Below, in pieces: positions 1,461 through 45,613 of a DNA stretch of 64,000 nt. Position numbers and translations under genes: made by a program. The stretch spans positions 232-64,231 of the forward strand of contig JAFUOV010000005.1 in the NCBI GenBank assembly GCA_017481745.1. Direction: 5' to 3'. Position 1 is the stretch's first letter. Each line of letters starts with the position of its first letter. Under the pieces are notes generated by a model. That model was not told where the DNA came from. It was given only the letters and a program-made list of their open reading frames with translations, and did not search any database. Origin of the DNA: Bacteroidaceae bacterium. GTDB taxonomy: Bacteria; Bacteroidota; Bacteroidia; Bacteroidales; Barnesiellaceae_A.

Positions 1461-2558
1461 ATGAAGAGATTGATAGGTATACTCCTATTACCCTTGTGCG
1501 CTTTGGGTGCATCGGCACAATGCAAAGATAAAGCCGATCACGAAGATCACAACCGAGTGGTGAACGTGAATGCCGAGGTGCGAATAGACTTCCAACAGGA
1601 GTATTTGGACAACGAACTCTATAAGCCCAACTCGGGCTTCAAGGGTAAATACCTTACCATTGCCCTCGATGGTCATATCAACAAATATTTCTATTACGCC
1701 TATCGTCAACGTCTCAATCGTGCACACAAAGACGAGAGTTTTTTCGATGCTACCGACTGGGTATATATCAGCTATCGTCCCAATGAGCATTGGGATATCT
1801 CGGCAGGTAAGCAAGTAGTAGGTATTGGTGGCTATGAATACGACCGTTCGCCTATCGACTTGTATTTCAACTCGGAGTATTGGAACAACATTGCCTGCTA
1901 TCAGTTGGGTGTAAGTGTTACCTATGCCATCGGAAATGGTAACGATCGCCTGATGGCACAAGTGTGCGAGAGCCCATATAGCACGCATCAAGACTTTATG
2001 TTTGCCTATAACTTGATGTGGTATGGCAAGCACGATTGGTTCAATACAATCTATTCGCTCAACATGACCGAGTTTAAGCCCGGAGAGTATATCTATTATG
2101 TAGTGTTGGGTAACGAGTTTAAGTTTGATAACTTCAAGTTTCAAATCGACTATATGAACCGCGCCACCAATGGTCATGCCTTCTTCTTCAAAGACGTCTC
2201 TATCATGGGCGAGTTGTCGTATATGATAAAAGACAAAGTAAATGTCTTTGGCAAGGCAACCTACGATGTGAACAAAAGCGGTGTCGAGGGCGACTACAGC
2301 GTTATGCCCGGCACCGAGTTGACACGTGTGGGTGCAGGTGTTGAGTATTATCCATTGTCGAAGGGTCGCAAAGACTTGCGCTTGTTTGCTCACTATAGCT
2401 ACTCGTGGGGTGTAAATGGCAATATAAACGGTACCATTAAAGACAAACAACACTTCTGGGGCGTGGGCGTAAAATGGAATATTGATATTATATCGTTAAC
2501 ACAAAAAATCTTTAAGAAAGATGGAAAATCCGGAAACCCCGAAGAAGCGGAAATTTAA
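1461..2558 (+). CDS. Putative outer-membrane beta-barrel/porin-like protein
   Basis: Signal peptide; alternating aromatic/Gly-rich amphipathic strand pattern resembling Bacteroidetes porins. Family not firmly recognised. Confidence 0.5.
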   Translation: MKRLIGILLLPLCALGASAQCKDKADHEDHNRVVNVNAEVRIDFQQEYLDNELYKPNSGFKGKYLTIALDGHINKYFYYAYRQRLNRAHKDESFFDATDWVYISYRPNEHWDISAGKQVVGIGGYEYDRSPIDLYFNSEYWNNIACYQLGVSVTYAIGNGNDRLMAQVCESPYSTHQDFMFAYNLMWYGKHDWFNTIYSLNMTEFKPGEYIYYVVLGNEFKFDNFKFQIDYMNRATNGHAFFFKDVSIMGELSYMIKDKVNVFGKATYDVNKSGVEGDYSVMPGTELTRVGAGVEYYPLSKGRKDLRLFAHYSYSWGVNGNINGTIKDKQHFWGVGVKWNIDIISLTQKIFKKDGKSGNPEEAEI

Positions 2559-3687
2559 TTTCCTAAAACACGTTCCTACCGGCGTGCCTTGTTTGGTGAT
2601 TGTCGTAGGTTTATTCTGCTTGATTGGCTCGCAAATGGGTGTTTCGCCCATGTTTAAAACTATCATGAATACTGCCCACGACTTGTTGCTCAATACAGTG
2701 TTCTTCCTGATGGCGGTGTGTGTGATTACCGGAGCAATAGGTCGCATCTTTATGGATTTTGGCGTGGTGAAGTTGCTCGAGAAGATGCTTCGCCCGTTGA
2801 TGAAACCGCTGTTCAACCTACCCGGTGTGGCTTCGTTGGGCGCAGTAATGACATTTTTGTCGGACAATCCGGCTATTATCTCGCTCTCGCAAGACAAGCG
2901 CTTTTGTAGCTACTTCAAGAAGTATCAATATATATCACTTACCAACTTTGGTACAGCCTTTGGTATGGGCTTGTTGGTGATTGTGTATATGATAGGCTTG
3001 GGCTACTTTGTAGAACCCTTTATAGGTTTGTTGGGTGCATTCTGCGGCTGTATTGTGTCGACTCGTATAATGCAATATTTCATCTTGAAAGAGTATCCCA
3101 ACTATGCCCACGAAGATGTGGTGGAGGAGGTGGTGAAACGCACTACTAAAGCTCAAGTAGAGGAAGATTCGTTGTTTACCCGCATCCTCAATGCGCTGCT
3201 CGACGGTGGTCGTACCGGTGTCGATGTGGGTATAGCTATCATCCCCGGTGTGCTCATTATTTCGACATTTGTTATGTTGCTCACTTTCGGTCCGAACAAA
3301 GAGACCGGCGAGTTTACCGGTGCTGCATATGAAGGTATCTCGGCATTGCCTTGGTTGGCAGGTAAGATAAACTTTATATTCGATTGGCTCTTTGGATTTA
3401 AAGATCCGCATTTGGTAGCATTCCCCATTACAGCGCTGGGTGCTGTGGGCGCTGCCTTGAGCTTGATACCCGAATTTATCAACGGTGGATATATTGATGG
3501 CAACGCCATAGCCGTATTTACTGCAATAGGTATGTGCTGGAGTGGCTATTTGAGCACTCACACTGCAATGCTCGACTCGCTGGGCTATCGCGAACTCACA
3601 TCAAAGGCTATCCTCTCGCACACCATTGGCGGATTGGTGGCTGCTATCGTTGCACACTGGGTATTTGTGCTGTATGCTCTGATATAA
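2521..3687 (+). CDS. Polytopic inner-membrane protein, nucleoside-recognition (Gate) domain-like (YjiH/SpmA-type)
   Basis: Multiple hydrophobic helices; N-terminal region resembles Gate-domain transporters. Overlaps the upstream ORF by 38 nt. Confidence 0.5.
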   Translation: MENPETPKKRKFNFLKHVPTGVPCLVIVVGLFCLIGSQMGVSPMFKTIMNTAHDLLLNTVFFLMAVCVITGAIGRIFMDFGVVKLLEKMLRPLMKPLFNLPGVASLGAVMTFLSDNPAIISLSQDKRFCSYFKKYQYISLTNFGTAFGMGLLVIVYMIGLGYFVEPFIGLLGAFCGCIVSTRIMQYFILKEYPNYAHEDVVEEVVKRTTKAQVEEDSLFTRILNALLDGGRTGVDVGIAIIPGVLIISTFVMLLTFGPNKETGEFTGAAYEGISALPWLAGKINFIFDWLFGFKDPHLVAFPITALGAVGAALSLIPEFINGGYIDGNAIAVFTAIGMCWSGYLSTHTAMLDSLGYRELTSKAILSHTIGGLVAAIVAHWVFVLYALI

Positions 3688-7036: not shown

Positions 7037-8827
7037 ATGAGCGAAGAATTTAAAAGCCCGGTAGAAAACTTTGACTGGGATGCCTTTGAAAAAGGTGAAG
7101 TCTTCGGTGGTAAGAGCCGCGAAGAATTGGAGGCTGCTTACAACCAAACCTTGAACGCTGTCAAGGACAAAGAGGTACAAGAAGGTACCATTATCTCGAT
7201 GAACAAACGCGAAGTCGTTGTTAACATCGGTTACAAATCGGACGGTATCATTCCTATGAGCGAGTTCCGTTACAATCCCGATTTGAAAATCGGCGACACT
7301 GTAGAAGTATACGTAGAGAGCCAAGAAGACCGCAAAGGTCAACTCATTCTCTCGCACAAGAAAGCTCGCGCTGCTCACTCTTGGGAGCGTGTTAATGCTG
7401 CTTTCGACAACAACGAGATTATCACAGGTTACATCAAATGCCGTACTAAAGGCGGTATGATTGTAGAAGTATTTGGTGGCACAGAGGCATTCCTCCCCGG
7501 CTCTCAAATCGACGTTAAGCCTATCCGCGACTACGATATCCTCGTTGGCAAAACAATGGAATTCAAAGTTGTTAAAATCAACCAAGAGTATCGCAACGTT
7601 GTTGTTTCGCACAAAGCCCTCATCGAGGCCGAAATCGAAGCACAAAAGAAAGAAATTATCGCAAGCCTCCAAAAAGGTTCTGTATTGGCAGGTACTGTCA
7701 AGAACATCACTTCTTACGGTGTGTTCATCGACCTTGGTGGTATCGACGGTCTTATCCACATCACCGACCTCTCTTGGGGCCGCGTAAATCATCCCGAAGA
7801 GGTTGTTTCTCTCGATCAAAAACTCGAAGTGGTTGTTCTCGACTACGATGAGGAGAAGAAACGCATCGCCCTCGGTCTTAAACAACTCCAACCCCATCCC
7901 TGGGATGCTCTTCCCGCCGACCTCAAAGTGGGCGACAAAGTACAAGGTAAGGTTGTCGTTATGGCAGACTACGGTGCATTTATCGAAATCCTCCCCGGTG
8001 TTGAAGGTCTCATCCACGTTTCTGAGATGTCTTGGTCACAACACCTCCGCAGCGCTCAAGACTTCATGAAAGTTGGCGACGATGTTGAGGCTGTAGTACT
8101 TACTCTCGACCGCGAGGAGCGTAAGATGTCTCTCGGTATCAAACAACTCAAAGACGATCCTTGGCAAAACATCGAGACCAAATATGCTGTTGGTTCTCGC
8201 CACGCTGCCAAAGTTCGCAACTTCACTAACTTCGGCGTATTCGTTGAAATCGAAGAGGGTGTTGACGGCTTGATCCACATCAGCGACCTCTCTTGGACTA
8301 AGAAAATCAAACACCCCTCTGAGTTCACTCAAATTGGTGCTACTATCGACGTTCAAGTTCTCGAAATCGACAAAGAAAACCGTCGTCTCAGCCTCGGTCA
8401 CAAACAACTCGAAGCTAATCCTTGGGACAAATTTGAGGAAATCTACAAAGTAGACACTATCCACCAAGGTACTATCGAAGAGTTGCTCGAGCGTGGTGCT
8501 GTAGTTTCTTTGCCCGAAGGCGTTGAAGGCTTTGCTACTCCCAAACACCTTGTTAAACAAGATGGCTCTCAAGCTCAAGTGAAAGAGACTCTCGACTTCA
8601 AGGTTATCGAGTTCAACAAAGAGACTAAACGCATCATCCTTTCTCACAGCCGCATCTTCGAAGACGAAGCTAAGGCCGAAGTGAAGAAAGAAGCTGCTGC
8701 AAAACGTCCCGCTAAGAAAGCTAAACCCGCAGAGGAAGCTCCTGCAATTCCCGCAGTAGAGAAAACAACTCTCGGTGATATCGACGCTTTGGCAGCTCTC
8801 AAAGAGAAAATGGCTAAAGGCGAATAA
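7037..8827 (+). CDS. rpsA: 30S ribosomal protein S1
   Basis: Six S1-domain repeats (G..V.G.V......G.F........G..H.S) and a Lys/Ala-rich tail; 596 aa. Confidence 0.97.
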   Translation: MSEEFKSPVENFDWDAFEKGEVFGGKSREELEAAYNQTLNAVKDKEVQEGTIISMNKREVVVNIGYKSDGIIPMSEFRYNPDLKIGDTVEVYVESQEDRKGQLILSHKKARAAHSWERVNAAFDNNEIITGYIKCRTKGGMIVEVFGGTEAFLPGSQIDVKPIRDYDILVGKTMEFKVVKINQEYRNVVVSHKALIEAEIEAQKKEIIASLQKGSVLAGTVKNITSYGVFIDLGGIDGLIHITDLSWGRVNHPEEVVSLDQKLEVVVLDYDEEKKRIALGLKQLQPHPWDALPADLKVGDKVQGKVVVMADYGAFIEILPGVEGLIHVSEMSWSQHLRSAQDFMKVGDDVEAVVLTLDREERKMSLGIKQLKDDPWQNIETKYAVGSRHAAKVRNFTNFGVFVEIEEGVDGLIHISDLSWTKKIKHPSEFTQIGATIDVQVLEIDKENRRLSLGHKQLEANPWDKFEEIYKVDTIHQGTIEELLERGAVVSLPEGVEGFATPKHLVKQDGSQAQVKETLDFKVIEFNKETKRIILSHSRIFEDEAKAEVKKEAAAKRPAKKAKPAEEAPAIPAVEKTTLGDIDALAALKEKMAKGE

Positions 8828-10340: not shown

Positions 10341-10382
10341 GAAAGGTGAGAAGTAGGGACGTGCAGCTGGTGCGTGGTGAAT

Positions 10383-10643
10383 GTTGAGAGATGAGAGTTT
10401 AGTGTTTAGAGATTATAGACATAAGAACAAAAGAACGGGCGTTGAGAGATGTGAGCGTATGCACAAACCCCTCAGTCGCAGGGCGACAGCTCCCCTATAT
10501 TTTTCTGTCGAAAGACACAGAGGAGCAAAATATTACCATACAGCAAGAGTAACCTTTTCTGCCCCTGCGAGTGAAACGAGATAGGGGAAGTGCCCAAAGG
10601 GCGTAGGGGTTTTATGAATGTTTAGAGTTTAGAGTTTAGAGAG
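10383..10643 (+). repeat. Repeat-family copy A: heptad array + TAAGAACA..GTTGAGAG module + ~150-nt core + heptad array
   Basis: By-eye alignment to the copies at 15801-16060 and 16061-16260; lies in the convergent intergenic region between the wHTH and MBL genes. Confidence 0.85.
10465..10612 (+). ncRNA. Candidate structured RNA core (copy A) of the repeat family
   Basis: Closing helix AAACCCCT/AGGGGTTT encloses hairpins GTCGC-AGG-GCGAC, GCTCC..GGAGC, TTAC..GTAA, CCCCT..AGGGG and GCCC-AAA-GGGC. The strand of any transcript is unknown. Confidence 0.3.
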
Positions 10644-10661
10644 GGACAAGTTTTTGCGTTT

Positions 10662-11527: not shown

Positions 11528-11672
11528 TGAGTGTTTTTATGTATTTAGTGTTTAGTGTTTAGTGTTTAGAGTTTAGATAGTAACCTTTTCTGCCCCTGCG
11601 AGTGGAACGAGATAGGGGAAGTCCACGAAGTGGGAAGGGGTTTTATGAAAGTTTAGAGATTAGTGTTTAGAG
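11528..11672 (+). repeat. Repeat-family partial copy: heptad array + 3' half of the core + heptads
   Basis: 11580-11644 matches the core 3' half (TAACCTTTTCTGCCCCTGCGAGTGGAACGAGATAGGGGAAGTCCACGAAGTGGGAAGGGGTTTT). Confidence 0.85.
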
Positions 11673-11710: not shown

Positions 11711-11779
11711 AAGAGATTAGGACTGAGGGGTTTGTGCGTGTGCTCTAAACTCTAACCCCTAATCTCTCAACTCTCACCC
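11711..11779 (-). repeat. Repeat-family partial copy in inverted orientation (heptads + core 5' end)
   Basis: The reverse complement reads GAGAGTTGAGAGATTAGGGGTTAGAGTTTAGAGCACACGCACAAACCCCTCAGTC. Confidence 0.75.
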
Positions 11780-11869: not shown

Positions 11870-14800
11870 TTAGCGAACAACCTTGCTTACGTTGTCGTTG
11901 CAACGTACGATGTAAACGCCTCCGTTCATGCCGTTGAGGTCTACTTCGTTCTCGCCACGAGCTACTACTGCACCGCTCATGTTGTACACTACGATAGTGC
12001 CTTCGGCTGTTACGATGCCGTTCTTGTATGCTATACCATTTTCGACTGTTACACCTTCAATACCTGTGCCTATTGAAGTATCGGGAGCAAGTGTTACTGT
12101 GAAGCTAAACTCGGGGCTTACACGCTCGGCAAGACCTTTTGCTGCAAAAGTTACGGCTCCTTGTTCGAATGTAATAGTGTAAGTTTCACCGGTAGTGAGG
12201 CATCCGTCCCAACTGTTTACACCGAACGATACTGTACCACCACTGATGCCTTTGTTCAACACTTGACGTTCGCCTTCGATGTGAACACCGTTGTAGTGCA
12301 TCCACCAAGTCTCGGGAGTGATTATCACTTTCGAAGCATCAAAGTCAGATACTTTCTCGAAGAAAGTAACAGTCATAGTTTCGGTTTGAGTCTTTTCTGC
12401 AACTGTGAGGTATGTACCATCGGCAGGCGATGTGCTTTCGTAAGGAAGTACATAGAGTGAGTTGTAATCGGGGCGAACTTCTACCTTATATACACCTGCA
12501 CCTGCCACTTTAAATTGGTTGTTTATGGGATTCGATGCGAAACTATAATCAAGACCTTGGAGTGCGAAGTGCTCGGCTACCTTGCCGTCTTCACGAGCAA
12601 CGAATGCGGGGTGCAATGCCGACTCGGTGGTGGGGAACAAGAAACCTTCATCGGCACTTACAAAGTTTACAACGGCAGTGTAAACAGCCTCGCCGTTTTC
12701 GCCGGTAGTAGGCTCAAGTGCACCACGACCGTCCACGCCATACTCTGTTGCGTTACCTGCTATGAAGATGTATTCGAATGTTTCTTCTTCAACAGGATAG
12801 AATGTAACTTTCATATTGACAAGGTCTATAACGGCTTTTACTTTTACGCGAGTTTCACCCTCTACGGCTGCTCCATCGTAAGTTTCCATACCGTCGAAGC
12901 CATTAGAGTGGAAGAGGCGTTTGCTGGTATCATCCCAGGAGAATGAGAGGTTGTAAGCCTCTTCATAGTTGATATCTGTTGTAGCTACATCGGGGATGAG
13001 GTGACCACCGTTGGCAAAACCACTACCCAAGAGGAATTTGAAACGAGAGTTGTCTGCACCGTCGCCATTGTCGTCGTAGAGATAACCGGTCCATGTATAT
13101 GTACCTGATGCCAAGTCAACATCGCAACCTTGGATGGTCGATACACCCCAACCTGTTGAGCCGCCACCTACATCGCTGGCTTCATATTTCTCAACTACGG
13201 CACTACCGGCAATGTAAACGTCGGCAGGAAGTACACGCACTGTATTGAGTGCGCGATTTACCTCTATAGTAACATTAATAGGATTGCCGTTGGGAGTAGT
13301 GAATGTTTTGGCATCGTTGCTCGATGTCGATTTCATACCGTAGGTTTTACCTATCTCTATTTGCAAGTCGTTGTCGCTGTTGGCACCATATTGACCGTTG
13401 TCGCTTTCTTTGTAAAGACGGAATTTGAAGCCACCTTTGAGAGGTCCGGTATAAGTGTAGATGTTACCATCGGTTGAGGTCATTGCCAAGCACTCATTCC
13501 AGTTGTCATTTGTACCTGTTACGAAGTAGAATCCGGCCTCTTCTTCAACGGGCTTTGTAGGAGTAGTAGTGTTACCATCTGCATCGTAAGTCGTATTGTC
13601 TTTCCAAGTCAAGTCTGTGGTTTGACTGCCATTATTACCATTGTTGAAGATAAGACCTGCACCGTTTAGATCGCTTGTAGTAGTGTATGCCCAAGTGGTG
13701 TCATTTATTTCTTTTGCTGTGCTACCGGGCCATTCGCCCAAGTATTTTTCGTCGGTCTCTAAGTTCCAAGCATATACACTTACTGTATCCCAATTCTTGC
13801 TATTGGTAAAGTACACAGTGTGGTTGTTTGTTGTGTCGATAGGATCTGTTTTTCCGTTGTCATCGTATGTAGCACCGTTTTCGAGTGCGAGGTCGCCGGT
13901 TTGGGTATTATTACCTTCGTTGAAAATCACCATAGGCGTAACAAGTACATCGGTAGTAGTGAATGAAATTTCCCAAACACCGTTGTTATAAGTCATTGCA
14001 GAACCGGGCCATTCGCCAAGATATTTTTTGCTGTCATTGCCTTGGTCCCAAACGTATGCGTGAACTTTGGTTTTACCACCGATGTAGTAGAAAGTCCAAG
14101 TAATTTCCTCGGGGGCTGCTGTTACTGTAACAGTAGCAGTCTTGGTTTCGGCAGCGCCGGCAAGAGTTGCTGTAATTTCGTATGTGCCTACTGCACCGGG
14201 AGTCCAAGGCGAAGTGATTTTGTTGCCGTCGATGGTATATTCAACATCGGCTGCATCGGCATTCTCAACCTCGCAAGTGAAAGTAACCTCCTCACCAAGT
14301 ACGATTGTTGAGGGCTCGGCCGTGAAAGTTACGATTGCGGGAACAGGTACTGCATTAACAATTACAGTAGCTGTTTTGCTTTCTGCACCTTCGAGTGAAG
14401 CAGTGATGGTGTATGTACCTACAGCAGCAGGTGTCCAAGGCGAAGTTATAACTTCGTCGTTTACTGTGTAAACGACATTCTCGGTAGTATTTTCAGTTGT
14501 AGAAGTCAAAGTAACCGACTCGCCAAGAGTAATTTCGGCAGGCTCGGCTGTGAAAGAAGTGATAGCAGGAACGGGAACTGCATTAACAGTTACAGTAGCT
14601 GTTTTGCTTTCTGCACCTTCGAGTGAAGCAGTGATGGTATATGTACCTACAGCAGCAGGTGTCCAAGGCGAAGTGATAACCTCTTCGTTAACAGTATAAA
14701 CTACTTCATTAGTAGTGTTTTCAGTTGTAGAAGTCAAAGTAACCGACTCGCCAAGTACGATTGTTGAGGGCTCGGCTGTGAAAGTAAGAATAGCAGGAGT

Positions 14801-15526
14801 TGCAACAACTACTTCCGAGAACTTAGCAGTAAGTTTTACATCGGCGTGAGGTGCTGTGTAAGTGTAAGTTGTGGCTGTAGATACTAGGTTGCCTTCAGCA
14901 TCGTACCAACCCAAGAACTCTGCGCCGTCATCGGGGGTAGCTGTACAAGTAACAGTAGCAGTATAAGCAGCATCGGCAGAAGTTGTACCCGAAGAGGCTG
15001 TAGCAGTGCTTGCGGCAGTCAACTTATAAGTTGAAATAGCAGTTGTACCCTCACCCTCGATGGTGATGTTTTGAGCGTGGTTAAGGGCTGTGTAACTATT
15101 TGAACTGTTTCCGATATAATTAATATCGATGTTAGCATTTTTATTTGCATTTTCTTTGGTTACCAAATAATATGATCCGGAATCAAAGCGGTAGTCACCG
15201 TAAGTATTGGTATAATATTGAGCATTGGTGCGATTGCCAGAACTCCAATTGCCACTACCCCAAGATCCAGTTGTACCAATGACACAAAAATAATTTGCAC
15301 CACCCCAAGAAATTTGTTTGTAGTGATATAAATTTGTACCTGCAATCTTTTTCATTTCGAAAAGACTTGTGTAACTGTTGTGACCTACGCAAGCATATAC
15401 GTATTTGTACTCAGGAATATCTGTACCATCAAAATAGATATCTCCTCCTGAGTGGTCAACTGCCATTGCGTTGAAGTTAGCGCATAGCAATAATGCACTA
15501 ACAAGAGTTAATAAGATTTTTCTCAT
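11870..15526 (-). CDS. T9SS-secreted multi-domain surface protein: Listeria-Bacteroides repeat, 3 Ig-like repeats, 2 CBM25/26-like starch-binding-type modules, further beta-rich FKF-motif modules, T9SS C-terminal sorting domain
   Basis: Signal peptide from MRKILLTLVS (ATG 15526); FLGWYDAEGNLV motif; three 76-aa repeats; two Y.W....KYLGEWPG...IFN.GNN.QT.DL modules; C-terminal VYNMSGAVVARG..LNGMNGGVYIVR..KVVR. No catalytic domain recognised. Confidence 0.8.
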   Translation of the reverse strand: MRKILLTLVSALLLCANFNAMAVDHSGGDIYFDGTDIPEYKYVYACVGHNSYTSLFEMKKIAGTNLYHYKQISWGGANYFCVIGTTGSWGSGNWSSGNRTNAQYYTNTYGDYRFDSGSYYLVTKENANKNANIDINYIGNSSNSYTALNHAQNITIEGEGTTAISTYKLTAASTATASSGTTSADAAYTATVTCTATPDDGAEFLGWYDAEGNLVSTATTYTYTAPHADVKLTAKFSEVVVATPAILTFTAEPSTIVLGESVTLTSTTENTTNEVVYTVNEEVITSPWTPAAVGTYTITASLEGAESKTATVTVNAVPVPAITSFTAEPAEITLGESVTLTSTTENTTENVVYTVNDEVITSPWTPAAVGTYTITASLEGAESKTATVIVNAVPVPAIVTFTAEPSTIVLGEEVTFTCEVENADAADVEYTIDGNKITSPWTPGAVGTYEITATLAGAAETKTATVTVTAAPEEITWTFYYIGGKTKVHAYVWDQGNDSKKYLGEWPGSAMTYNNGVWEISFTTTDVLVTPMVIFNEGNNTQTGDLALENGATYDDNGKTDPIDTTNNHTVYFTNSKNWDTVSVYAWNLETDEKYLGEWPGSTAKEINDTTWAYTTTSDLNGAGLIFNNGNNGSQTTDLTWKDNTTYDADGNTTTPTKPVEEEAGFYFVTGTNDNWNECLAMTSTDGNIYTYTGPLKGGFKFRLYKESDNGQYGANSDNDLQIEIGKTYGMKSTSSNDAKTFTTPNGNPINVTIEVNRALNTVRVLPADVYIAGSAVVEKYEASDVGGGSTGWGVSTIQGCDVDLASGTYTWTGYLYDDNGDGADNSRFKFLLGSGFANGGHLIPDVATTDINYEEAYNLSFSWDDTSKRLFHSNGFDGMETYDGAAVEGETRVKVKAVIDLVNMKVTFYPVEEETFEYIFIAGNATEYGVDGRGALEPTTGENGEAVYTAVVNFVSADEGFLFPTTESALHPAFVAREDGKVAEHFALQGLDYSFASNPINNQFKVAGAGVYKVEVRPDYNSLYVLPYESTSPADGTYLTVAEKTQTETMTVTFFEKVSDFDASKVIITPETWWMHYNGVHIEGERQVLNKGISGGTVSFGVNSWDGCLTTGETYTITFEQGAVTFAAKGLAERVSPEFSFTVTLAPDTSIGTGIEGVTVENGIAYKNGIVTAEGTIVVYNMSGAVVARGENEVDLNGMNGGVYIVRCNDNVSKVVR
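14117..14800 (-). repeat. Intragenic tandem repeat, 3 x 228 bp (76-aa Ig-like units)
   Basis: CTGCATTAACA..GTGTCCAAGGCGAAGT blocks recur with a 228-nt offset (14351 vs 14579). Two units are near-identical and the third is diverged. Confidence 0.9.
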
Positions 15527-15624
15527 TTTTTTGTGTTTTATGTTTTTAGATTTAATATTCGGCTTCTTTATATTGTTGTCTTTCAGTGGTTTGTTTGTAT
15601 CACTTTCGGCGTAATAATTGCCTG

Positions 15625-15632
15625 CAAAATTA
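15625..15632 (-). promoter_or_regulatory. -7 promoter box TAATTTTG for the T9SS cargo gene
   Basis: Plus strand CAAAATTA is TAATTTTG on the minus strand, about 100 nt upstream of ATG 15526. Confidence 0.5.
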
Positions 15633-15685
15633 AACAAACACATTGTTAATATTGAGAAAAATATATTTTTAAACAAAAATTAACC

Positions 15686-15699
15686 CGCAAACGTTTGCG
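15686..15699. promoter_or_regulatory. 14-bp perfect palindrome CGCAAACGTTTGCG, LacI/PurR-type operator-like
   Basis: Perfect dyad with a CG centre, matching the generic LacI-family half-site pattern (..AAACG|CGTTT..); lies 54 nt upstream of the -7 box. Confidence 0.4.
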
Positions 15700-15865
15700 C
15701 CATGGGCGTAGCAGGGGGTAGACCTAAGAACAGGTGTTGAGAGATTTAAAGACACATGAACATTAGAACAAAAAAATAGTGAGCGTAGGGGTTCATGAAA
15801 GATGAGAGTTTAGTGTTTAGAGTTTAGAGACCTAAGAACAGGCGTTGAGAGGTGTGAGCATACGC

Positions 15866-16015
15866 AAAACCCTTCAGTCGCAGGGCGACAGCTCCCCTAT
15901 ATTTTTCTGTCGAAAAACACAGAGGAGCAAAATATTACCATAACAGCAAGGTAACCTTTTCTGCCCCTGCGAGTGAAACGAGATAGGGGAAGTCCACGAA
16001 GTGGGAAGGGGTTTT
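15866..16015 (+). ncRNA. Candidate structured RNA core (array unit 1)
   Basis: P1 15866-15874/16007-16015; hairpins at 15877-15889, 15891-15928, 15935-15954, 15964-15989 and 15994-16004. Confidence 0.3.
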
Positions 16016-16066
16016 ATGAAAGATGAGAGTTTAGTGTTTAGAGTTTAGAGTTTAGTGTGTATGTAC

Positions 16067-16216
16067 AAAACCCCTCAGTCGCAGGGCGACAGCTCCCCTG
16101 TATTTTCCTCTCGGAAAACACAGAGGAGCAAAATATTACCATAACAGCAGGGTAACCTTTTCTGCCCCTGCGAGTGAAACGAGATAGGGGAAGTCCACGA
16201 AGTGGGAAGGGGTTTT
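16067..16216 (+). ncRNA. Candidate structured RNA core (array unit 2)
   Basis: Same architecture; P1 AAAACCCCT/AGGGGTTTT is a perfect 9 bp. Confidence 0.3.
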
Positions 16217-16334
16217 ATGAAAGTTTAGGGTTTAGAGTTTAGTGTTTAGTGTTTAGAGTGTATACGCAAAACCCCTCAACACCTTTTTGTTCTTATGTTC
16301 TTGTGCCTATGAATCTTTCGCCACACCCCACTCT

Positions 16335-17564
16335 CTACGCTTTTTTCTCTAATTTCTTGCGGAGGATGTGTGCGGGGTAGCCGGCGGTGAGGGCGCCAAG
16401 GAGTAGTACGATAGCTGTAACGATGAGGGTGTCGCTCCACTCGATGCGTACGGGGTAGGCTTCGACGATGAAAGTATTGGCTTCGCCGTTACCCAGTTGC
16501 AGCAAGCCGAACTCTTGTTGCAGCCAGCATAGCAATGTGCCTACTACGAGTCCCGATAGAGCGCCTATCATAGAGATGAGCCAGCCCTCGGTCATGAAGA
16601 TGCGGGTGATGAGCCGGTCGTCGGCACCGAGCTTGCGCAGGGTGGCGATGTCGTCTTGCTTGTCGACGATGAGCATCGAGAGCGAGCCGACAATGTTGAA
16701 TGTGGCTATAAGCAGTATAAAGGCGAGGATAAGGAAGGTAATCCACTTTTCTATCTGTATCCAGCGGTACGACTCGCCGTTCTGCATGAGGCGGTCTTGG
16801 ATGATGTAGCCGTCGCCCAATCGTTGTTGCAGGCGGTCTATTACCTTGTGTGTCGATGCGCCCGGTGTGGTGCACAGCTCTATGCTTGTTGCCTCGGTGG
16901 GGTAGTCGAAGAGGGTGCGTGCATCGTCGAGGGGGATGTATATGACGTTGTCGTCGTATTGTGTCTGGTTGGTGTAGAACGTAGCCGACACGAAAAAACG
17001 TTGCGAGGTGAACGAGCCGGCGGGATTGGCAAGGTTGACACGACGGTTGCGTTGTGGGGCATATAGTTCGATGGGGCGGGCAAAGTTGGCACCGGCTTCG
17101 AGTTTAGCCCCCACGCCTATGCCTATGATGGCATACGACACAATCTCGTCTTGCAGCAGATATTCGCCATTGTATAGGGTACGGTCGAGGGCTATGCCTT
17201 GGTTGTAATCGAGGGGTATGCCCTTCACGACGACCGGCATCTGGCGTTGGTACACAGCCAAGGCTGTCTCTTCGATGACGGGGGTAAGGTATGCCACGTC
17301 GTCCCACGCAGCTATTTCGTCCCATGCCTCTATTGTGCCGTCGATGGTCTTGCCCTCGGCAGGAAGTATCTTTATCTCGGGCTGTATGTCGGATAGCAGC
17401 GAGTCGATGAGGCTCGAGAAGCCGTTATATACCGACAGTGTGCATATAAGTGCAGCCGTAATGAGTGCCACTCCGCACACCGATATAATAGATATGATGT
17501 TGATGGCAGAGTGCGATTTCTTGGAGAAAAGATACCTTGATGCTATGCGCAGGGCGAGAGACAT
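16335..17564 (-). CDS. ABC transporter permease, FtsX/LolE-like
   Basis: 409 aa, N-terminal TM helix, large periplasmic loop, C-terminal FtsX-type 3-TM bundle (DIATLRKLGA motif). Confidence 0.8.
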   Translation of the reverse strand: MSLALRIASRYLFSKKSHSAINIISIISVCGVALITAALICTLSVYNGFSSLIDSLLSDIQPEIKILPAEGKTIDGTIEAWDEIAAWDDVAYLTPVIEETALAVYQRQMPVVVKGIPLDYNQGIALDRTLYNGEYLLQDEIVSYAIIGIGVGAKLEAGANFARPIELYAPQRNRRVNLANPAGSFTSQRFFVSATFYTNQTQYDDNVIYIPLDDARTLFDYPTEATSIELCTTPGASTHKVIDRLQQRLGDGYIIQDRLMQNGESYRWIQIEKWITFLILAFILLIATFNIVGSLSMLIVDKQDDIATLRKLGADDRLITRIFMTEGWLISMIGALSGLVVGTLLCWLQQEFGLLQLGNGEANTFIVEAYPVRIEWSDTLIVTAIVLLLGALTAGYPAHILRKKLEKKA

Positions 17565-24446: not shown

Positions 24447-24500
24447 AGATGAGGGTTTAGAGTGTAGTGTTTAGTGTTTAGAGACATAAGAACAAAAGAA
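24441..24500 (+). repeat. Heptad array + TAAGAACA module relic abutting the yfhO-like stop codon
   Basis: GGTTAGAGATGAGGGTTTAGAGTGTAGTGTTTAGTGTTTAGAGACATAAGAACAAAAGAA; the TAG stop at 24444-24446 lies in the first heptad. Confidence 0.8.
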
Positions 24501-24819
24501 TACGAGCCGAAATGCCGTCTGAAAGACGTGTCGAGGGTTGAAAGCCCGAGTATGGATAACCCCCAACGAATGAGCCGATAGGCGAATGAAGTTGGGGGGA
24601 TGTTGCCAACCCACCACGCCACCGTCTGTAAAGACGAGAAGCCCCATCGCAATCCTCGCCGGAAAAAACCGTATTGCCATGCCCAACCCACCACGCCGGC
24701 AGATGACTGCTATATACCTTATACCCGGCACTTCGCTCGCCGATGGCTCGCTCGTACCGGGCTATTGATTTCGCGGGCTTGCAGCCCTTGACACGTGCTT
24801 TGCACGTTGCTAAACAAAA

Positions 24820-24854
24820 GCGGGTGAGTCGAATATTCCATTCGGCTCACCCGC
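24820..24854 (-). terminator. Intrinsic terminator of rho
   Basis: 15-bp stem GCGGGTGAGTCGAAT/ATTCGGCTCACCCGC; TTTTGTTT follows on the minus strand. Confidence 0.8.
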
Positions 24855-24875
24855 GTATATTATATAATGTGTCTA

Positions 24876-38644: not shown

Positions 38645-38684
38645 GAGGGTGTGCCAAAATTTTGGCACACCCTCTTTGTGTTTG
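38645..38684 (+). terminator. Perfect 30-nt palindrome + T-rich tract: terminator of the nif3 operon and/or leader attenuator of the portal-like gene
   Basis: GAGGGTGTGCCAAAA/TTTTGGCACACCCTC followed by TTTGTGTTTG. Confidence 0.7.
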
Positions 38685-38779
38685 TCAATTATATCACGCT
38701 TCAAATTCTCTCTATCGCAGTGAGTCGCTGTGCTGTGGCGGTTACTTTGTGGTCGAAAAATTACTTTAAATTATCGACT

Positions 38780-40702
38780 ATGGATTTTATTGATTATCGC
38801 ACATTCAATCGTAAACGGCTCATGCCTACATCCGATATAAAGGATATGGGCGAAGCAGCTCCCTTTGGCAAGCAAGATAGCGAGGTGCTGCATGAGGCAT
38901 ACTCGGCATGGGAGGCGTTATCTCATTATCGGTCGCAGCGTACACGCAATCGCAACTATACATTTGGCAGGCAGTGGTGCGATCCCGTAAAGCTACCCGA
39001 TGGGCGTGTTGTTACCGAGGAGCATTATCTGCACGAGCAGGGAAAAGTACCTCTCAAAAACAACCTGATACGACAACTTGTCAAGAGCGTACTCGGGCAG
39101 TTTCGCAGTGCGCAGACCGAGCCTGTTTGTGTGGCTCGTGAACGTAACGAGCAGCTTTTGGGCGAACTGATGAGTGCTGTCATGCAATATGTCTATCAGC
39201 ACAACAAGATGTACGAGTTGGATAGTCGTACGCTCGAGGAGTTCCTCATCTCGGGTTCATGCTTTCATAAGATAGGTTATAGCACTCGCCGCGGCAAGAC
39301 CGATGTGTGGGTCGATACCGTACAACCTTCGCGCATCTTCTTCAATAATATTGAGGATTGCCGACTGTGGGATTGCACCATGATAGGCGAGCTACACGAT
39401 ATGAAACTTGCCGACCTTATAGCTCGTTTCTGCAAGGGCGATGAGGCAAAGGCGCGTATATTGCACGATATGTATGGTGATGTTACCGAGGAGAATATCT
39501 TCAACGAGCACGACTTCCTAAACGGTCGCCGAAACGATACTCTCGACTTTTATATGCCCGCATCGTCCGATTGTTGTCGTGTGATAGAGGTGTGGCGATT
39601 GGAGTCGCGCGAGCGTTTGCGTTGCCACGATACCTTGTCGGGCGAGTATTATAAGATAGAAACCGCCGAGAAAGCGGCTATTGACAAGGAGAACAAAGAG
39701 CGTATATCGCAAGCCAAGAAACAAGGGATAGATGCAGCCCAAGTGCCATTGATAGAGTGTGAGTGGTTTATCGACCATTTTTGGTACTATCGTTTCTTCT
39801 CGCCGCTGGGGCATATTCTCGATGAGGGCGAAACACCCTATTGGCATGGCGAGCATCCATATAGCTTCCGTCTTTACCCCTTGCTCGATGGCGAGGTACA
39901 CTCGTTTGTAGAGGATGTGATAGACCAACAACGCTATGTCAACCGCCTTATCACGATGATAGATTTTATCATGGGCAGTAGTGCCAAGGGTGTTTTGCTC
40001 TTCCCCGAAGACCAAATCCCCGACGGTATGACACTCGAAGATATTGCCTCCGAGTGGACTCGATACAATGGCGTGATACTCTTCCGTCCCAAGCCCGGCA
40101 GCACCATGCCGCAGCAGATTTCGGTCAACGCCACCAATGTGGGCGCGTATGAGTTATTGTCGTTGCAGATGCGTTTGCTTGAAGATATTTCGGGTGTACA
40201 TAGTGCCATGCAGGGCAAGCCTGTTGCAAGCGGTACGCCATCGTCGCTCTATGCGCAGCAAGTACAATATTCGGCTACCAATCTGCTCGATATCTTCGAG
40301 TCGTTCAAGACCTTTAGAGAGGAGCGCGACAACAAGATACTCAAGACCATTCGTCAGTTCTACACCGAGCAACGATATATACAGATTGCCGGTGAAGATA
40401 GTGCTGCATTAGCAGAGATTACGCCCGAGCAGGTACAATACTCCGAGGTCGACATCATTATCAGCGAGTCGGCAGCAGCTCCGGCATTCCGCCAATCGTC
40501 CAACGAATTGTTGCTCGCCCTTTTCCGCAGCGGGCATATTACGTTGCAAACGCTGTTGCAAACAGGCTCGTTCCCCTTTGCCGACAAGTTGTTGCAACGG
40601 ATTGATGCCGAGCAGCAAGAGCTCGAGCAGAAAACTCAAGAACAGATGCAGCAATTACAGCAACTGCAACAGTTACAAAAGTCGGCATCACCAAAAGATT
40701 GA
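38780..40702 (+). CDS. Phage portal-like protein (P22/podovirus-type), orphan
   Basis: 640 aa. By-memory resemblance to P22-type portals: N-terminal NYTFGRQW motif, NNLIRQLVKSV..P helix, central LLFPEDQIP motif, Gln-rich C-terminal helix EQQELEQKTQEQMQQLQQLQQLQ. Not a computed alignment. Confidence 0.55.
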   Translation: MDFIDYRTFNRKRLMPTSDIKDMGEAAPFGKQDSEVLHEAYSAWEALSHYRSQRTRNRNYTFGRQWCDPVKLPDGRVVTEEHYLHEQGKVPLKNNLIRQLVKSVLGQFRSAQTEPVCVARERNEQLLGELMSAVMQYVYQHNKMYELDSRTLEEFLISGSCFHKIGYSTRRGKTDVWVDTVQPSRIFFNNIEDCRLWDCTMIGELHDMKLADLIARFCKGDEAKARILHDMYGDVTEENIFNEHDFLNGRRNDTLDFYMPASSDCCRVIEVWRLESRERLRCHDTLSGEYYKIETAEKAAIDKENKERISQAKKQGIDAAQVPLIECEWFIDHFWYYRFFSPLGHILDEGETPYWHGEHPYSFRLYPLLDGEVHSFVEDVIDQQRYVNRLITMIDFIMGSSAKGVLLFPEDQIPDGMTLEDIASEWTRYNGVILFRPKPGSTMPQQISVNATNVGAYELLSLQMRLLEDISGVHSAMQGKPVASGTPSSLYAQQVQYSATNLLDIFESFKTFREERDNKILKTIRQFYTEQRYIQIAGEDSAALAEITPEQVQYSEVDIIISESAAAPAFRQSSNELLLALFRSGHITLQTLLQTGSFPFADKLLQRIDAEQQELEQKTQEQMQQLQQLQQLQKSASPKD

Positions 40703-43257: not shown

Positions 43258-45582
43258 GTGGAAAAATCCCTTTTACAAAATCTCAATTCGGCGCAACGCG
43301 ATGCTGTTCTCTATACCGACGGACCTCAGTTGGTCATTGCCGGCGCAGGTTCGGGAAAGACTCGCGTGCTCACCTATAAGATTGCATATCTGCTCTCGCA
43401 AGGCTATGAGCCGTGGCGTATATTGGCACTTACATTCACAATTAAGGCTGCCAACGAAATGAAAGAGCGTATTGCTCGGTTGGTGGGACGTGAGGTGGCT
43501 GCCCGGTTGTGGATGGGAACATTCCACTCTATCTTCTCTCGCATACTGCATGCCAATGCCGAGCGCTTGAATTTCCGTAGCGATTTCACTATATACGACA
43601 CTGCCGACTCACGCTCGCTGCTCAAAACCATTATCAAGGAGATGCAGCTCGACGACAAGATATACAAGCCGGCAACCGTTCAGAGCATCATATCGAATGC
43701 CAAGAATGCACTTATTACCCCATCATTGTATAGCACCAATGCCGAGTTGCTCGAGATGGACCGCAAGCAGAAGCGCCCTATGATGCACAACATCTATCGT
43801 ACCTATTGGGAGCGATGCTTCCGTGCCGGAGCAATGGACTTTGACGACTTGTTGCTCTATACCAATATACTCTTTCGCGACCACCCCGATGTGGCGCAGA
43901 AATACCGCGATTTGTTCCGTTATGTCTTGGTTGACGAGTATCAAGATACCAACTTCTCGCAGCATCTTATTGTCAATCAATTGTGCCGCGAACATGGTCG
44001 ATTGTGCGTGGTGGGTGATGATGCACAGAGCATCTACTCGTTTCGTGGTGCCAATATAGGCAATATACTCAATCTTAAAAACGAGTATAAGGGCTTGCAA
44101 ATCAATAAGCTGGAACAGAATTATCGCTCGACGCAGAACATTGTCGATGCTGCCAATAGCCTCATCAGCAAGAACAAAGAGCAAATACGCAAGCGCGTAT
44201 TCTCCGAGAAAGAGCGTGGTAGCAAAGTGGCAGTATTTGCCTCATATTCCGATTTTGAAGAGGGCTATCTTGTTGCCAATCGTATCAAGGAGATGCACTT
44301 GCTCAACAGTACGCCGTACAACGATTTTGCCATACTCTACCGCACCAACGCACAGTCGCGTGTGCTTGAGGAGGCATTGCGCAAGCGCAATATGCCCTAT
44401 CGTATCTATGGTGGTCTTTCGTTCTATCAACGCAAAGAGATTAAAGATGCTGTGGCATATATGCGCCTTACCATCAATCCCAATGACGAGGAGGCTTTCA
44501 AGCGTGTTGTCAACTATCCGGCGCGAGGTATTGGCGAGACTACCGTTGGCAAGATACTTGCTTGTGCGCAGCTGCACAACGTAGGGGTGTGGAGCGTATT
44601 GTCCGATCCTACCGAGTACAACCTGCAAATAAATTCGGGTACTCGCACCAAGCTTGCCGCCTTCCGCGATTTGATACAGGGCTTCAGCGATAGTGCCGGC
44701 GAGAAGTCTATATACGATTTGGTCGAGCATATCTTGCAGCGCTCGGGCATCATTGCCGATATATACACATCCGATACACCCGAAAATATAAGCCGACAAG
44801 AAAATATACAGGAGTTGCTCGGTGGTGTGATGGAGTTCTATTCTTTGCGTCAGGAGGAAGGAAACGAGGCTGTTACGCTATCCGACTTTCTCGCCGAGAT
44901 TTCTCTCATTACCGACCAAGACAAGGGCGATGAGCAAGACGACGATAAAGTAACGCTCATGACCATACACTCGGCAAAGGGATTGGAGTTTCGCAATGTC
45001 TTTATTACCGGTCTTGAAGAAGACCTCTTTCCCTCGGCAATGTGTGTAGAGAGTCTGCAGCAAATCGAGGAGGAGCGCCGGCTGCTATATGTAGCCATCA
45101 CGCGTGCGCAAGAAAATTGCATCCTAACCTATGCGCACACACGCTTCCGCAATGGCAAGACCAATACTTGTCGCCCCAGCCGTTTCCTGAAAGACCTCGA
45201 TACGCAATATGTCAATATGCCCGACGAAGCGCCGGTATCGACCACCAAGTCGCCCTATGCCGATGCACCTTGGCGTAGCCAATATACATCGTTCGAGCGC
45301 AGTTTCAAAGCTCCGACAAAGCCATCGACCCTCAAACCTATCGAAAATTCGCGCCGCATTGTTACCGCCGAGCAGCCTGTCGCCCCGACTCAGCAACGCG
45401 ATAGTGTAATGTCGGGTGCCGGTACGTTGCGTGTGAGTGCGCGTATCCGTCATGAACGCTTCGGATTGGGTACGGTCGAGGCAATAGAAGGCGTGGGCGA
45501 CAACTGCAAGATAAGTGTTGCCTTCGACAACGTAGGTCGCAAGCAACTACTACTGAAATTTGCCAAATTTACAATCCTCTAA
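43258..45582 (+). CDS. ATP-dependent DNA helicase, UvrD/PcrA/Rep family
   Basis: SF1 motifs AGAGSGKT, VDEYQDTN, TIHSAKGLEF, YVAITRA; GTG start. Confidence 0.9.
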   Translation: MEKSLLQNLNSAQRDAVLYTDGPQLVIAGAGSGKTRVLTYKIAYLLSQGYEPWRILALTFTIKAANEMKERIARLVGREVAARLWMGTFHSIFSRILHANAERLNFRSDFTIYDTADSRSLLKTIIKEMQLDDKIYKPATVQSIISNAKNALITPSLYSTNAELLEMDRKQKRPMMHNIYRTYWERCFRAGAMDFDDLLLYTNILFRDHPDVAQKYRDLFRYVLVDEYQDTNFSQHLIVNQLCREHGRLCVVGDDAQSIYSFRGANIGNILNLKNEYKGLQINKLEQNYRSTQNIVDAANSLISKNKEQIRKRVFSEKERGSKVAVFASYSDFEEGYLVANRIKEMHLLNSTPYNDFAILYRTNAQSRVLEEALRKRNMPYRIYGGLSFYQRKEIKDAVAYMRLTINPNDEEAFKRVVNYPARGIGETTVGKILACAQLHNVGVWSVLSDPTEYNLQINSGTRTKLAAFRDLIQGFSDSAGEKSIYDLVEHILQRSGIIADIYTSDTPENISRQENIQELLGGVMEFYSLRQEEGNEAVTLSDFLAEISLITDQDKGDEQDDDKVTLMTIHSAKGLEFRNVFITGLEEDLFPSAMCVESLQQIEEERRLLYVAITRAQENCILTYAHTRFRNGKTNTCRPSRFLKDLDTQYVNMPDEAPVSTTKSPYADAPWRSQYTSFERSFKAPTKPSTLKPIENSRRIVTAEQPVAPTQQRDSVMSGAGTLRVSARIRHERFGLGTVEAIEGVGDNCKISVAFDNVGRKQLLLKFAKFTIL

Positions 45583-45613
45583 ACACTCAACTTTAAACAC
45601 TCAACACTCAACA
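45577..45613 (-). repeat. Heptad array (TTGAGTG/TTTAGAG type, inverted) filling the whole uvrD-like/nspC intergenic spacer
   Basis: CTCTAAA CACTCAA CTTTAAA CACTCAA CACTCAA; the uvrD-like TAA stop lies in the first heptad. Confidence 0.7.

Follow-up and report, generated by a model that had tools for sequence, protein, structure and literature searches.

Introduction

Intergenic repeats of modular or inverted-repeat build are known from Streptococcus pneumoniae (BOX elements) and Neisseria (Correia elements); transcribed together with adjacent genes they form a stable RNA fold, and they can affect how these neighbours are expressed, with the Correia elements showing a TA target duplication and defined 26-nucleotide (nt) inverted repeats. 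Repetitive extragenic palindromes (REP) are units of 20–40 nt ending in GTAG (or CGTC) outside the stem, and clusters in which singletons or dimers are tandemly reiterated together with flanking DNA have been documented (PMC3733652). From the Bacteroidales, BrickBuilt of Porphyromonas gingivalis is known as a modular MITE (miniature inverted-repeat transposable element) (PMC4596501), and the TnpA_REP genes of Bacteroidetes (subclass 2.6) are reported to have 'atypical secondary structures' on their flanks (PMC6006769). Here we analyze a repeat locus in a stretch of 64,000 nt of contig JAFUOV010000005.1 (assembly GCA_017481745.1), which we call the window and to whose positions all unprefixed coordinates refer. 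A tandem array with a period of 201 nt is located there between the gene of an FtsX-like permease and the gene of a large type IX secretion system (T9SS)-type secreted protein, as an original prediction made from the letters of the DNA had already proposed. We regard this segment, with a probability of roughly 0.6, as a cluster of a lineage-specific, non-coding and non-autonomous palindromic mosaic repeat, of the same kind as the REP doublets that form hairpins (REPIN), the bacterial interspersed mosaic elements (BIME) and the hairpin MITEs.

Results

Tandem Repeats Finder reported the array at 15860–16278 with a period of 201, 2.1 copies, 91% matches, no indels and a score of 719, and the repeat alignment within the window showed 92% identity between 15854–16054 and 16055–16255 as well as the truncated start of a third unit (16262–16278), in agreement with the three core starts that had been predicted. 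The 25-mer TCAGTCGCAGGGCGACAGCTCCCCT from the core matched exactly at 15874, 16075 and 10472, with no match expected by chance in the window. The heptads GTTTAGA/GTTTAGT, also part of the prediction, form three arrays between the units (15805–15829, 16026–16055 and 16223–16256), and the window has 31 matches to a double-heptad pattern where 0.32 would be expected. A relic of the core, predicted at 15781–15800, is real (15781–15801), and the repeat alignment shows it at 15788–15829. The array is not an assembly artefact: L029 and L030, which were assembled independently, agree with the window at 100% identity across the portion of the array that they reach. We took the minus strand as the sense of the repeat because both genes flanking the array are encoded on it.

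Each core of about 150 nt is a long imperfect palindrome consisting of two inverted half-sites of about 70 nt, with two hairpins each, and a variable centre. Across the family the unit length is 150–190 nt and the outer inverted repeat is AACCCC...GGGGTT. Within a half-site AACCCCT is followed by a small hairpin, GAC and then the CCCCTAT..ATAGGGG hairpin, and the two half-sites are joined by the variable central hairpin P2, which is anchored by AAAAGGTTACC/GGTAACCTTTT. The closing helix P0 pairs AACCCC with GGGGTT and continues into T-rich and A-rich flanks, where the extension co-varies (AAAACCCC/GGGGTTTT versus TTAACCCC/GGGGTTAA), and the core thus has the terminal inverted repeats of a MITE. 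P1 is a 4-bp hairpin, in P1b CUUCCCCU pairs with AGGGGCAG below a variable tip, in P3 GCUCCUCUGUGUU pairs with AAUAUAGGGGAGC, and P4 is again a small hairpin. Reading the copies side by side shows that the 3' half repeats the 5' half in inverted and diverged form and that the core is therefore a doublet of two palindrome-containing half-sites: both ends read AACCCCT-hairpin-GAC..CTCCCCTAT, both halves give from the outside in AACCCCT, the small hairpin, GAC and (C/G)(T)TCCCCTAT, and the reverse complement of P3 is nearly identical to P1b of copy L014_3941. As in REPIN, the units form inverted doublets, and solo halves are common besides them.

The predicted fold was assessed in alignments of distinct full copies (A1 with 13 and A2 with 20 copies), also with RNAalifold. 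In A2 standard pairing is found in 92.9% of the helix cells, compared to 47–57% when the partners are slid by 1–3 columns, and 12 pairs change on both sides, giving the hairpins with compensatory changes that are typical of REP. The covariation score of A2 is 0.151 compared to 0.078 for shuffles (0 of 500 reach 0.151) and 0.03–0.05 for slid partners. The sense strand is the more stable one in 18 of 22 copies (mean z of −5.1 sense versus −4.0 antisense), G.U pairs outnumber A.C pairs by 111 to 22, and four fixed wobble pairs all belong to the sense strand. This moderate strand bias of the modelled fold points to a function as a single strand, be it RNA or single-stranded DNA. Two features considered during modelling were given up: a 12-bp inner stem (TCACTCGCAGGG/CCCTGCGAGTGA) is specific for the window species, with other species having the co-varying local P4 hairpin instead, and the P1 loop cannot be an RNA-specific UNCG tetraloop as it is only 3 nt long (UUC/UGC).

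Read in the sense direction, and with all parts on the minus strand, the locus begins with the gene of the ftsX/MacB-type permease (16335–17564; PF12704 and PF02687 on an identical protein), the last gene of an rbfA–ftsX run, to which the array is located immediately 3'. Past its stop codon follows a junction segment (16279–16334) that harbours the inverted brick AGRCAYAAGAACAWAAGAAC at 16289–16308 and is also present in L031–L034. A solo 3' core tip at 16262–16278 (sense TGAGGGGTTTTGCGTAT), which is the truncated third copy mentioned above, forms the boundary of the array towards ftsX and is followed by a heptad microsatellite spacer (16219–16261, about five copies of sense CTAAACN plus TTTCAT), the full core C (16067–16218; nhmmer 154.4 bits, model positions 3–170), a palindromic doublet with helices P0, P1, P1b, P2, P3 and P4, a second heptad spacer (16018–16066) and the full core B (15867–16017; 153.9 bits, minus-strand fold of −60.8 kcal/mol with z = −5.0). 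Core B is succeeded by 3'-flank bricks (15831–15866, sense GCGTATGCTCACACCTCTCAACGCCTGTTCTTAGG), which appear in identical order 3' of another core of the window, core E, and by a further heptad run (15801–15830). On its other side the array is bounded by a solo 5' core tip (15773–15800, sense TTTCATGAACCCCTACGC) to which the remnant of the ftsX terminator, its right arm with the T-run (CCCTACGCTCACTATTTTTTT), is joined, as seen from the comparison with the array-free contigs L026–28. Bricks TAAGAACAGGTGTTGAGAG and AGACACATGAACATTAGAAC (15720–15772), also part of the array-free allele, lie beyond this point, and a hairpin with a T-run is found further downstream at 15699–15686.

The original prediction had also described the array as bracketed by inverted modules. 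Indeed, an inverted repeat is present, with one arm in the junction segment and the other in the bricks at 15720–15772, but it is longer and in another register, with 50 nt at 15734–15783 being 76% complementary to 16275–16324 across 491 nt. For the module CCTAAGAACAGGYGTTGAGAG at 15723–15743 a direct-repeat copy is found within the array (15831–15851) and a diverged copy at 10428–10448, which makes it a building block of the family and not one terminal arm. The idea of one composite or MITE-like unit ending in TAAGAACA..GTTGAGAG modules had thus to be abandoned, as these modules are internal bricks, one of them native to L026–28, and the true inverted termini AACCCC...GGGGTT are found inside every core and not at the ends of the array. 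What held was the view of a repeated and modular element.

Altogether the window contains three full cores and one half core. Copy E (10378–10645, minus strand), located 3' of a gene for a metallo-beta-lactamase-fold protein, comprises in sense order heptads (10620–10641), a full core (10464–10615), a GTTGAGAG brick (10428–10448), an AGACAT.. brick (10417–10436) and again heptads (10390–10418), as seen from nhmmer and motif matches. A solo 5' half-site (11574–11646; 77.3 bits, model positions 3–75) with heptad runs on either side occupies 11543–11672 on the minus strand, and an inverted solo 3' tip GACTGAGGGGTTTGTGCGT (11721–11739) with inverted heptads (11743–11776) is located on the plus strand at 11721–11776, downstream of the terminator of the T9SS gene. 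Heptads and a second brick, AGACAYAAGAACAWAAGAAC, are also found at 24455–24501. The order of heptads, AGACAYAAGAAC.. brick, GTTGAGAG brick and cores differs among the sites at 10.4, 11.6, 15.7–16.3 and 24.45 kb as well as between strains, so that a palindromic unit and a few short motifs occur in variable combinations and tandem reiteration as in a BIME.

For a comparison of alleles we used strain contigs that were picked by identical FtsX or metallo-beta-lactamase-fold proteins and whose housekeeping DNA is 98.8–99.99% identical to the window. An array-free allele, as the original prediction had asked for, is present in L026–28: the ftsX stop is followed by the perfect palindrome GTAGGGAC..GTCCCTAC with T7, which from its sequence looks like the native ftsX terminator, and then by the sequence of the window from 15790 downward. 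This comparison shows that 537 nt at 15791–16327 are confined to the array-bearing allele, where they stand in place of 31 nt including the left terminator arm, and that the array disrupts the native ftsX terminator. A pattern scan of the window detected only one truncated copy of the GTAGGGAC palindrome.

Other strains carry further rearrangements. In L050 (GCA_054287005.1) the terminator, heptads and one full core are directly followed by the beta-lactamase-fold gene, and in L032–34 position 16294 is joined to 11790 without homology; the secreted-protein gene is absent in both cases. L025 is 99.99% identical to the window and has 16152 joined to 11674 within a 95-nt stretch common to core C and the solo half-site at 11574–11646, which on sequence grounds makes it a recent homologous deletion of a 4.5-kb segment with the secreted-protein gene, by a crossover between cores. 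The region of copy E differs between strains in heptad number (2–4), an approximately 59-nt brick block and a 75-nt duplication, and a 385-nt tandem duplication within a cluster distinguishes L035 from L036, both of which belong to another species. The copies are thus substrates for homologous recombination leading to presence/absence and copy-number polymorphism, including the loss of an adjacent gene.

Regarding the distribution of the family, a 20-mer from its most conserved stretch retrieved 24 stretches from only four metagenome-assembled genomes (MAGs) in GenBank, namely 'Barnesiella sp.' JAZRIS01 and 'Bacteroidaceae bacterium' RGIG2076, RGIG6483 and RGIG6227, many of them at contig ends. 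Using a six-frame chimeric peptide as query against 5.8 billion proteins we found only five spurious open reading frames (ORFs; P0001–P0005), which span two or three tandem copies and whose contigs added loci L035–L041 to the collection; several ENA/JGI assemblies carry the family. In all collected DNA the nhmmer profile gave 127 matches to full, 5'-only and 3'-only copies in both orientations, which are usually clustered. With more cores in the window itself, in the four MAGs and in further assemblies, the array belongs to a dispersed family and is no local duplication artefact, a concern that the original prediction had raised. No match was obtained by blastn against 50,697 phage and 72,556 plasmid records, in IMG/VR viral contigs or, with two patterns, in JGI metagenome contigs. 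The null results of the metagenome pattern scans together with the low number of spurious ORFs show that the family is narrow. It is a lineage-specific family from a few uncultured gut Bacteroidales species that was previously undescribed; the 13-mers of the conserved core were not found in the literature and neither was a description of repeats of such kind near T9SS genes.

As predicted, the element is non-coding and does not belong to a family of Rfam 15 (4227 families): a search of 15300–16700 with E values up to 10 gave only noise, with a 16.5-bit ssnA match inside the ftsX ORF as the best hit besides 40-nt microRNA look-alikes, and the whole window at gathering score gave only four tRNAs. 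Three near-identical tRNA-Val(TAC) genes are located in tandem at 121–424 on the plus strand. An array of clustered regularly interspaced short palindromic repeats (CRISPR), which the prediction had likewise dismissed, does not apply, as the whole unit is repeated with the 201-nt period and unique spacers are missing.

In line with the prediction of no transposase in the window, Pfam identified there only housekeeping functions and, as the sole recombinase, a xerD-like gene next to aroQ, which lies at a distance of 3 kb and which all alleles have. Beside the other copies no transposase, integrase or reverse transcriptase was detected either, as Pfam matches of about 40 neighbours indicated housekeeping or secreted proteins only and did not include Y1_Tnp. 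All-against-all clustering of the ORFs from 24 loci gave element-derived pseudo-ORFs and BspA-type leucine-rich repeat (LRR) proteins as the only shared linked genes. A parent insertion sequence with the same ends was not found in the collected DNA, plasmids and phages. The Bacteroidetes −7 motif TAnnTTTG, searched by eye on both consensus strands, is present in few copies only (antisense of the L001-type P3), and a consensus scan predicted no intrinsic terminator within the array.

In some loci whole genes are located at the centre of the palindrome. In L003 a promoter region, the gene of an 808-amino acid (aa) protein with a weak Por_Secre_tail match and a terminator separate a 5' part (model 3–63) from a 3' part (model 63–173), and the junctions ...GGGGCGTT| (...GGCGTT|) and |GAGGTAAC... 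correspond to the sequence ...GTGGCGTT GAGGTAACC... of the intact copy next to it. In L036 and L035 a gene for 1154 aa on the opposite strand is located between parts corresponding to model 2–112 and 61–172, and in L002 two inverted 5' half-sites enclose a gene for 1022 aa. All three bracketed genes (L003, L036 and L002) are of the large secreted or T9SS type, and at each of these loci the P0 ends point outward. Long palindromes are subject to SbcCD-dependent instability, with breakage and repair at their tip, and the bracketed genes fit either cargo between element ends or such a breakage and repair. Homologous genes (L014 and L035–37, L021 and L041, L018 and L038–40) are found at the same loci, and no gene occurred in two genomic contexts. 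Smaller insertions of about 100 nt, consisting of other palindromic bricks, are found in P2 of copies from L022 and L041. In the 'Barnesiella sp.' MAG at least four copies (L003 377–635, L016 243–501, L017 252–510 and L019 3829–4087) contain, at one and the same point of the 5' half-site between P1 and CCCCTATCTCG, a different repeat of about 85 nt (..TGTCTATCGACCAAGTTGCTCACGCTCGGCA..CTCGCTTAATCGCAACAG), which makes a multicopy composite of two nested repeats. Next to the cluster and the 1154-aa gene of L036, an AbiEii/DUF6088 pair (AbiE-type toxin-antitoxin) is encoded at 1533–3175; the matching position in L035 is beyond the contig end.

The secreted protein encoded next to the array (11870–15526, minus strand) has 1218 aa with CBM26, PKD and Flg_new_2 domains and, at residues 1173–1212, a T9SS C-terminal sorting domain below the curated cut-off. 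The 658-nt spacer of the original prediction holds if the gene starts with TTG at 15676; starting from the ATG at 15526, which opens the signal-peptide-like MRKILLTLV... and is the likely gene start, the spacer is 808 nt. The gene is 89–92% identical between strains, compared to about 99% in its flanks, and is absent in L025, L050 and L032–34, which marks its product as a fast-diverging and dispensable surface protein. It contains internal tandem repeats of about 234 nt (14130–14570 versus 14364–14798, 76% identity). About half of the approximately 24 independent loci adjoin genes of large secreted multidomain or T9SS-type proteins, which is a plain count, and the rest adjoin housekeeping genes. 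Besides the window gene these neighbours include BspA-type LRR, Fn3_assoc/Big_5, BNR, fn3 and DUF5689 proteins and one Peptidase_C10, and several of them end precisely in a T9SS C-terminal sorting domain, with matches that exceed the curated cut-off or fall just short of it. While all copies in the window are co-oriented with the flanking genes, the orientation varies in other genomes, with the copies of L038 and L041 being antisense to both neighbours, and a functional meaning of the place upstream of the T9SS cargo gene, which the original prediction had pointed out, found no support.

Further repeats and genes of the window were noticed alongside. An imperfect giant palindrome of about 280 nt (24447–24875, core 24500–24800) fills the convergent spacer between a YfhO-like gene and rho and has an RNA fold with z = −5.5 on the plus and −3.8 on the minus strand. 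Like the cores it is preceded by a heptad run and a AGACATAAGAACAAAAGAAT brick; a second copy was not found in the collected DNA, and it may be another member of the same palindromic-repeat ecosystem. A perfect palindrome of GTAG type (GTAGGGACG..CGTCCCTAC; L026–28 7237–7270, L050 2660–2700, window 10353–10376) is the apparent ftsX terminator in other strains, is truncated beside copy E and duplicated in L045, and looks like a second, REP-like repeat family of the same species. At 45577–45612 (minus strand) a heptad-like run of GTTGAGT/GTTTAAA variants fills the 33-nt gap between the stop codon of a uvrD-like gene and the next start codon. A 683-aa protein of the phage P22-like portal family (PF16510, E = 1.6e-45) is encoded at 38651–40702 on the plus strand; no other phage genes were recognised nearby, where NIF3, a zinc-ribbon protein, an AmiA-like amidase and an aldehyde dehydrogenase are encoded.

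Discussion

In the model that we favour, the cores of the window species, embedded in CTAAACN heptad microsatellite and a few short bricks, would form a repeat without an enzyme of its own, which has most likely spread as a folded single strand through a host structure-specific enzyme acting in trans. By analogy, the Bacteroidetes-specific TnpA_REP/RAYT (REP-associated tyrosine transposase) HUH transposases may be the best candidates for this class of enzyme. The 201-nt array could have originated from tandem duplication or unequal exchange of a unit of heptads plus core, with the left arm of the ftsX terminator being replaced. The brick insertions in P2 of L022 and L041, the split element of L003 and the similar cases of L036 and L002 suggest that breaks or insertions would occur preferentially at the palindrome centre. 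In the window strain transcription from ftsX probably runs through the array as far as the hairpin and T-run at 15699–15686, which would result in a long, highly structured 3' untranslated region (UTR).

Several observations weigh against this model. A cognate enzyme was not found, and the HUH-Y1 motif pair was not detected in the 454 kb of collected DNA. At the window locus, L003 and L036 neither a target-site duplication nor a clean transposition footprint was seen; the search for an empty site, as the original prediction had suggested it, gave an array-free allele but a replacement of 31 nt by 537 nt instead of a simple insertion. Moreover, the half-sites of about 70 nt with two hairpins each differ from the single 20–40-nt hairpin of REP, and the core is devoid of a GTAG/CGTC tag and ends in AACCCC/GGGGTT; GTAG is found only in the different GTAGGGACG..CGTCCCTAC brick and there inside the stem. 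Long single-stranded stretches, for example GACTTCCCCTATCTCGTTTCACTCGCAGGGGCAGAAAAG, hardly vary between species, the G.U bias would likewise suit a functional RNA, and a purely selfish repeat would not predict T9SS-type genes beside about half of the loci.

Some of these points would be explained if the core were a structured non-coding RNA, acting either as a small RNA in many copies or in cis as a UTR element by which transcripts of the neighbours, especially of T9SS-cargo genes, would be stabilised, terminated or insulated, with the array as a multi-unit RNA. Such an RNA would account for the multi-helix fold with compensatory changes, the conserved G.U pairs on one strand (111 versus 22) together with the better folding of the sense strand, the near-invariance of the unpaired segments and the secreted-protein or T9SS genes next to about half of the loci; in the window the copies are also co-oriented with the flanking genes, and with the ftsX terminator disrupted, transcription is likely to run on into the array up to 15699–15686. 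Nevertheless, we consider it unlikely, since the orientation to the neighbours is inconstant (L038 and L041 being antisense to both), no conserved promoter or terminator was seen by eye and none predicted inside the array, there is no match in Rfam, and solo halves, nested insertions and truncated tips are traits of repeat DNA. Furthermore, the core is a two-fold palindrome, for which covariation is equally expected as a DNA hairpin.

The genes at the palindrome centre raise the question whether the half-sites are instead the ends of a mobile unit, or its sites for recombination, with whole T9SS surface-protein genes as its cargo and the 150-nt cores as its cargo-less form. The L003 gene between a 5' and a 3' part with junctions as in an intact copy, the bracketed 1154-aa and 1022-aa genes of L036 and L002 with P0 ends always facing outward, and the T9SS gene of the window, which is present or absent among strains and has core pieces on either side, all agree with it. 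On the other hand, no copy is linked to a recombinase or transposase, no direct-repeat footprint was seen, no gene occurs in two contexts with the homologues staying at the same loci, the junctions of L036 resemble two truncated elements and not a clean insertion, and breakage at the palindrome centre followed by repair gives the same picture, which makes such cassettes rather improbable in our view. If they did exist, the gut Bacteroidales of this clade would exchange, invert or discard cassettes of adhesin and glycan-binding genes via a hairpin-recognising enzyme, as an integron-like or REPtron-like system for cell-surface variation. By far the least probable is an invertible, phase-variable promoter of the secreted-protein gene as known from other Bacteroidales. 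The 50-nt inverted repeat of 76% that brackets 491 nt upstream of a surface-protein gene would suit it, but one arm is native to the array-free allele and both arms are copies of a brick found elsewhere, the inverted orientation is missing from all ten strain contigs, there is no recombinase gene next to the array and no promoter motif inside it, the −7-like box TAATTTTG being located downstream of it, near 15630.

Taken as a palindromic mosaic repeat, the family provides a Bacteroidales example, including natural experiments at the strain level, of the REP/REPIN/BIME and hairpin MITE class that is known mostly from Proteobacteria. Such repeats directly create presence/absence polymorphism of a surface-protein gene between 99.99%-identical strains. 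They also break short-read assemblies, with many copies being located at contig ends, and yield spurious ORFs, which matters for the quality and annotation of MAGs. If the link to T9SS genes should turn out to be mechanistic rather than a co-location in variable regions, it would hint at a so far unknown way in which gut Bacteroidales diversify their cell surface.

Comparison with known systems

With REP, REPIN and BIME the family shares its extragenic, multicopy and non-coding nature, the inverted-doublet hairpin unit, the occurrence as singlets and as clusters including tandem reiteration, compensatory changes in the hairpins, the mosaic with other short motifs and the strain-variable copy number; it differs from REP and REPIN in the heptad microsatellite spacer, the very narrow distribution and the association with T9SS-type genes. 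BrickBuilt is similar as it is also found in a Bacteroidales host, is intergenic, restricted to a species with tens of copies, not linked to a transposase, and modular, being composed of a minisatellite with 'leader' and 'tail' that have small inverted ends. However, a 150-nt double-hairpin palindrome with a 7-nt microsatellite spacer takes the place of the 23-nt minisatellite between short inverted ends, the two share no motifs (to which the sequence comparison was limited), and BrickBuilt has demonstrated promoter activity whereas the window family is known from sequence alone. BOX and Correia elements come from different phyla and are unrelated in sequence, and the TA duplication and 26-nt inverted repeats of the latter were not seen in the window family. 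Integron cassettes with their attC sites also show imperfect palindromes that fold as single strands, bracketed single genes and presence/absence among strains; in contrast, integrase, attI and the R'/R'' core GTTRRRY are absent in the window family, which conserves sequence as well as structure and whose bracketed genes have their own promoters and terminators. In summary, the element is undescribed but of a familiar REPIN/BIME/MITE-like kind, and it is unusual in its double-hairpin half-sites of 70 nt, its heptad spacers, its association with T9SS genes and the genes located at the palindrome centre.

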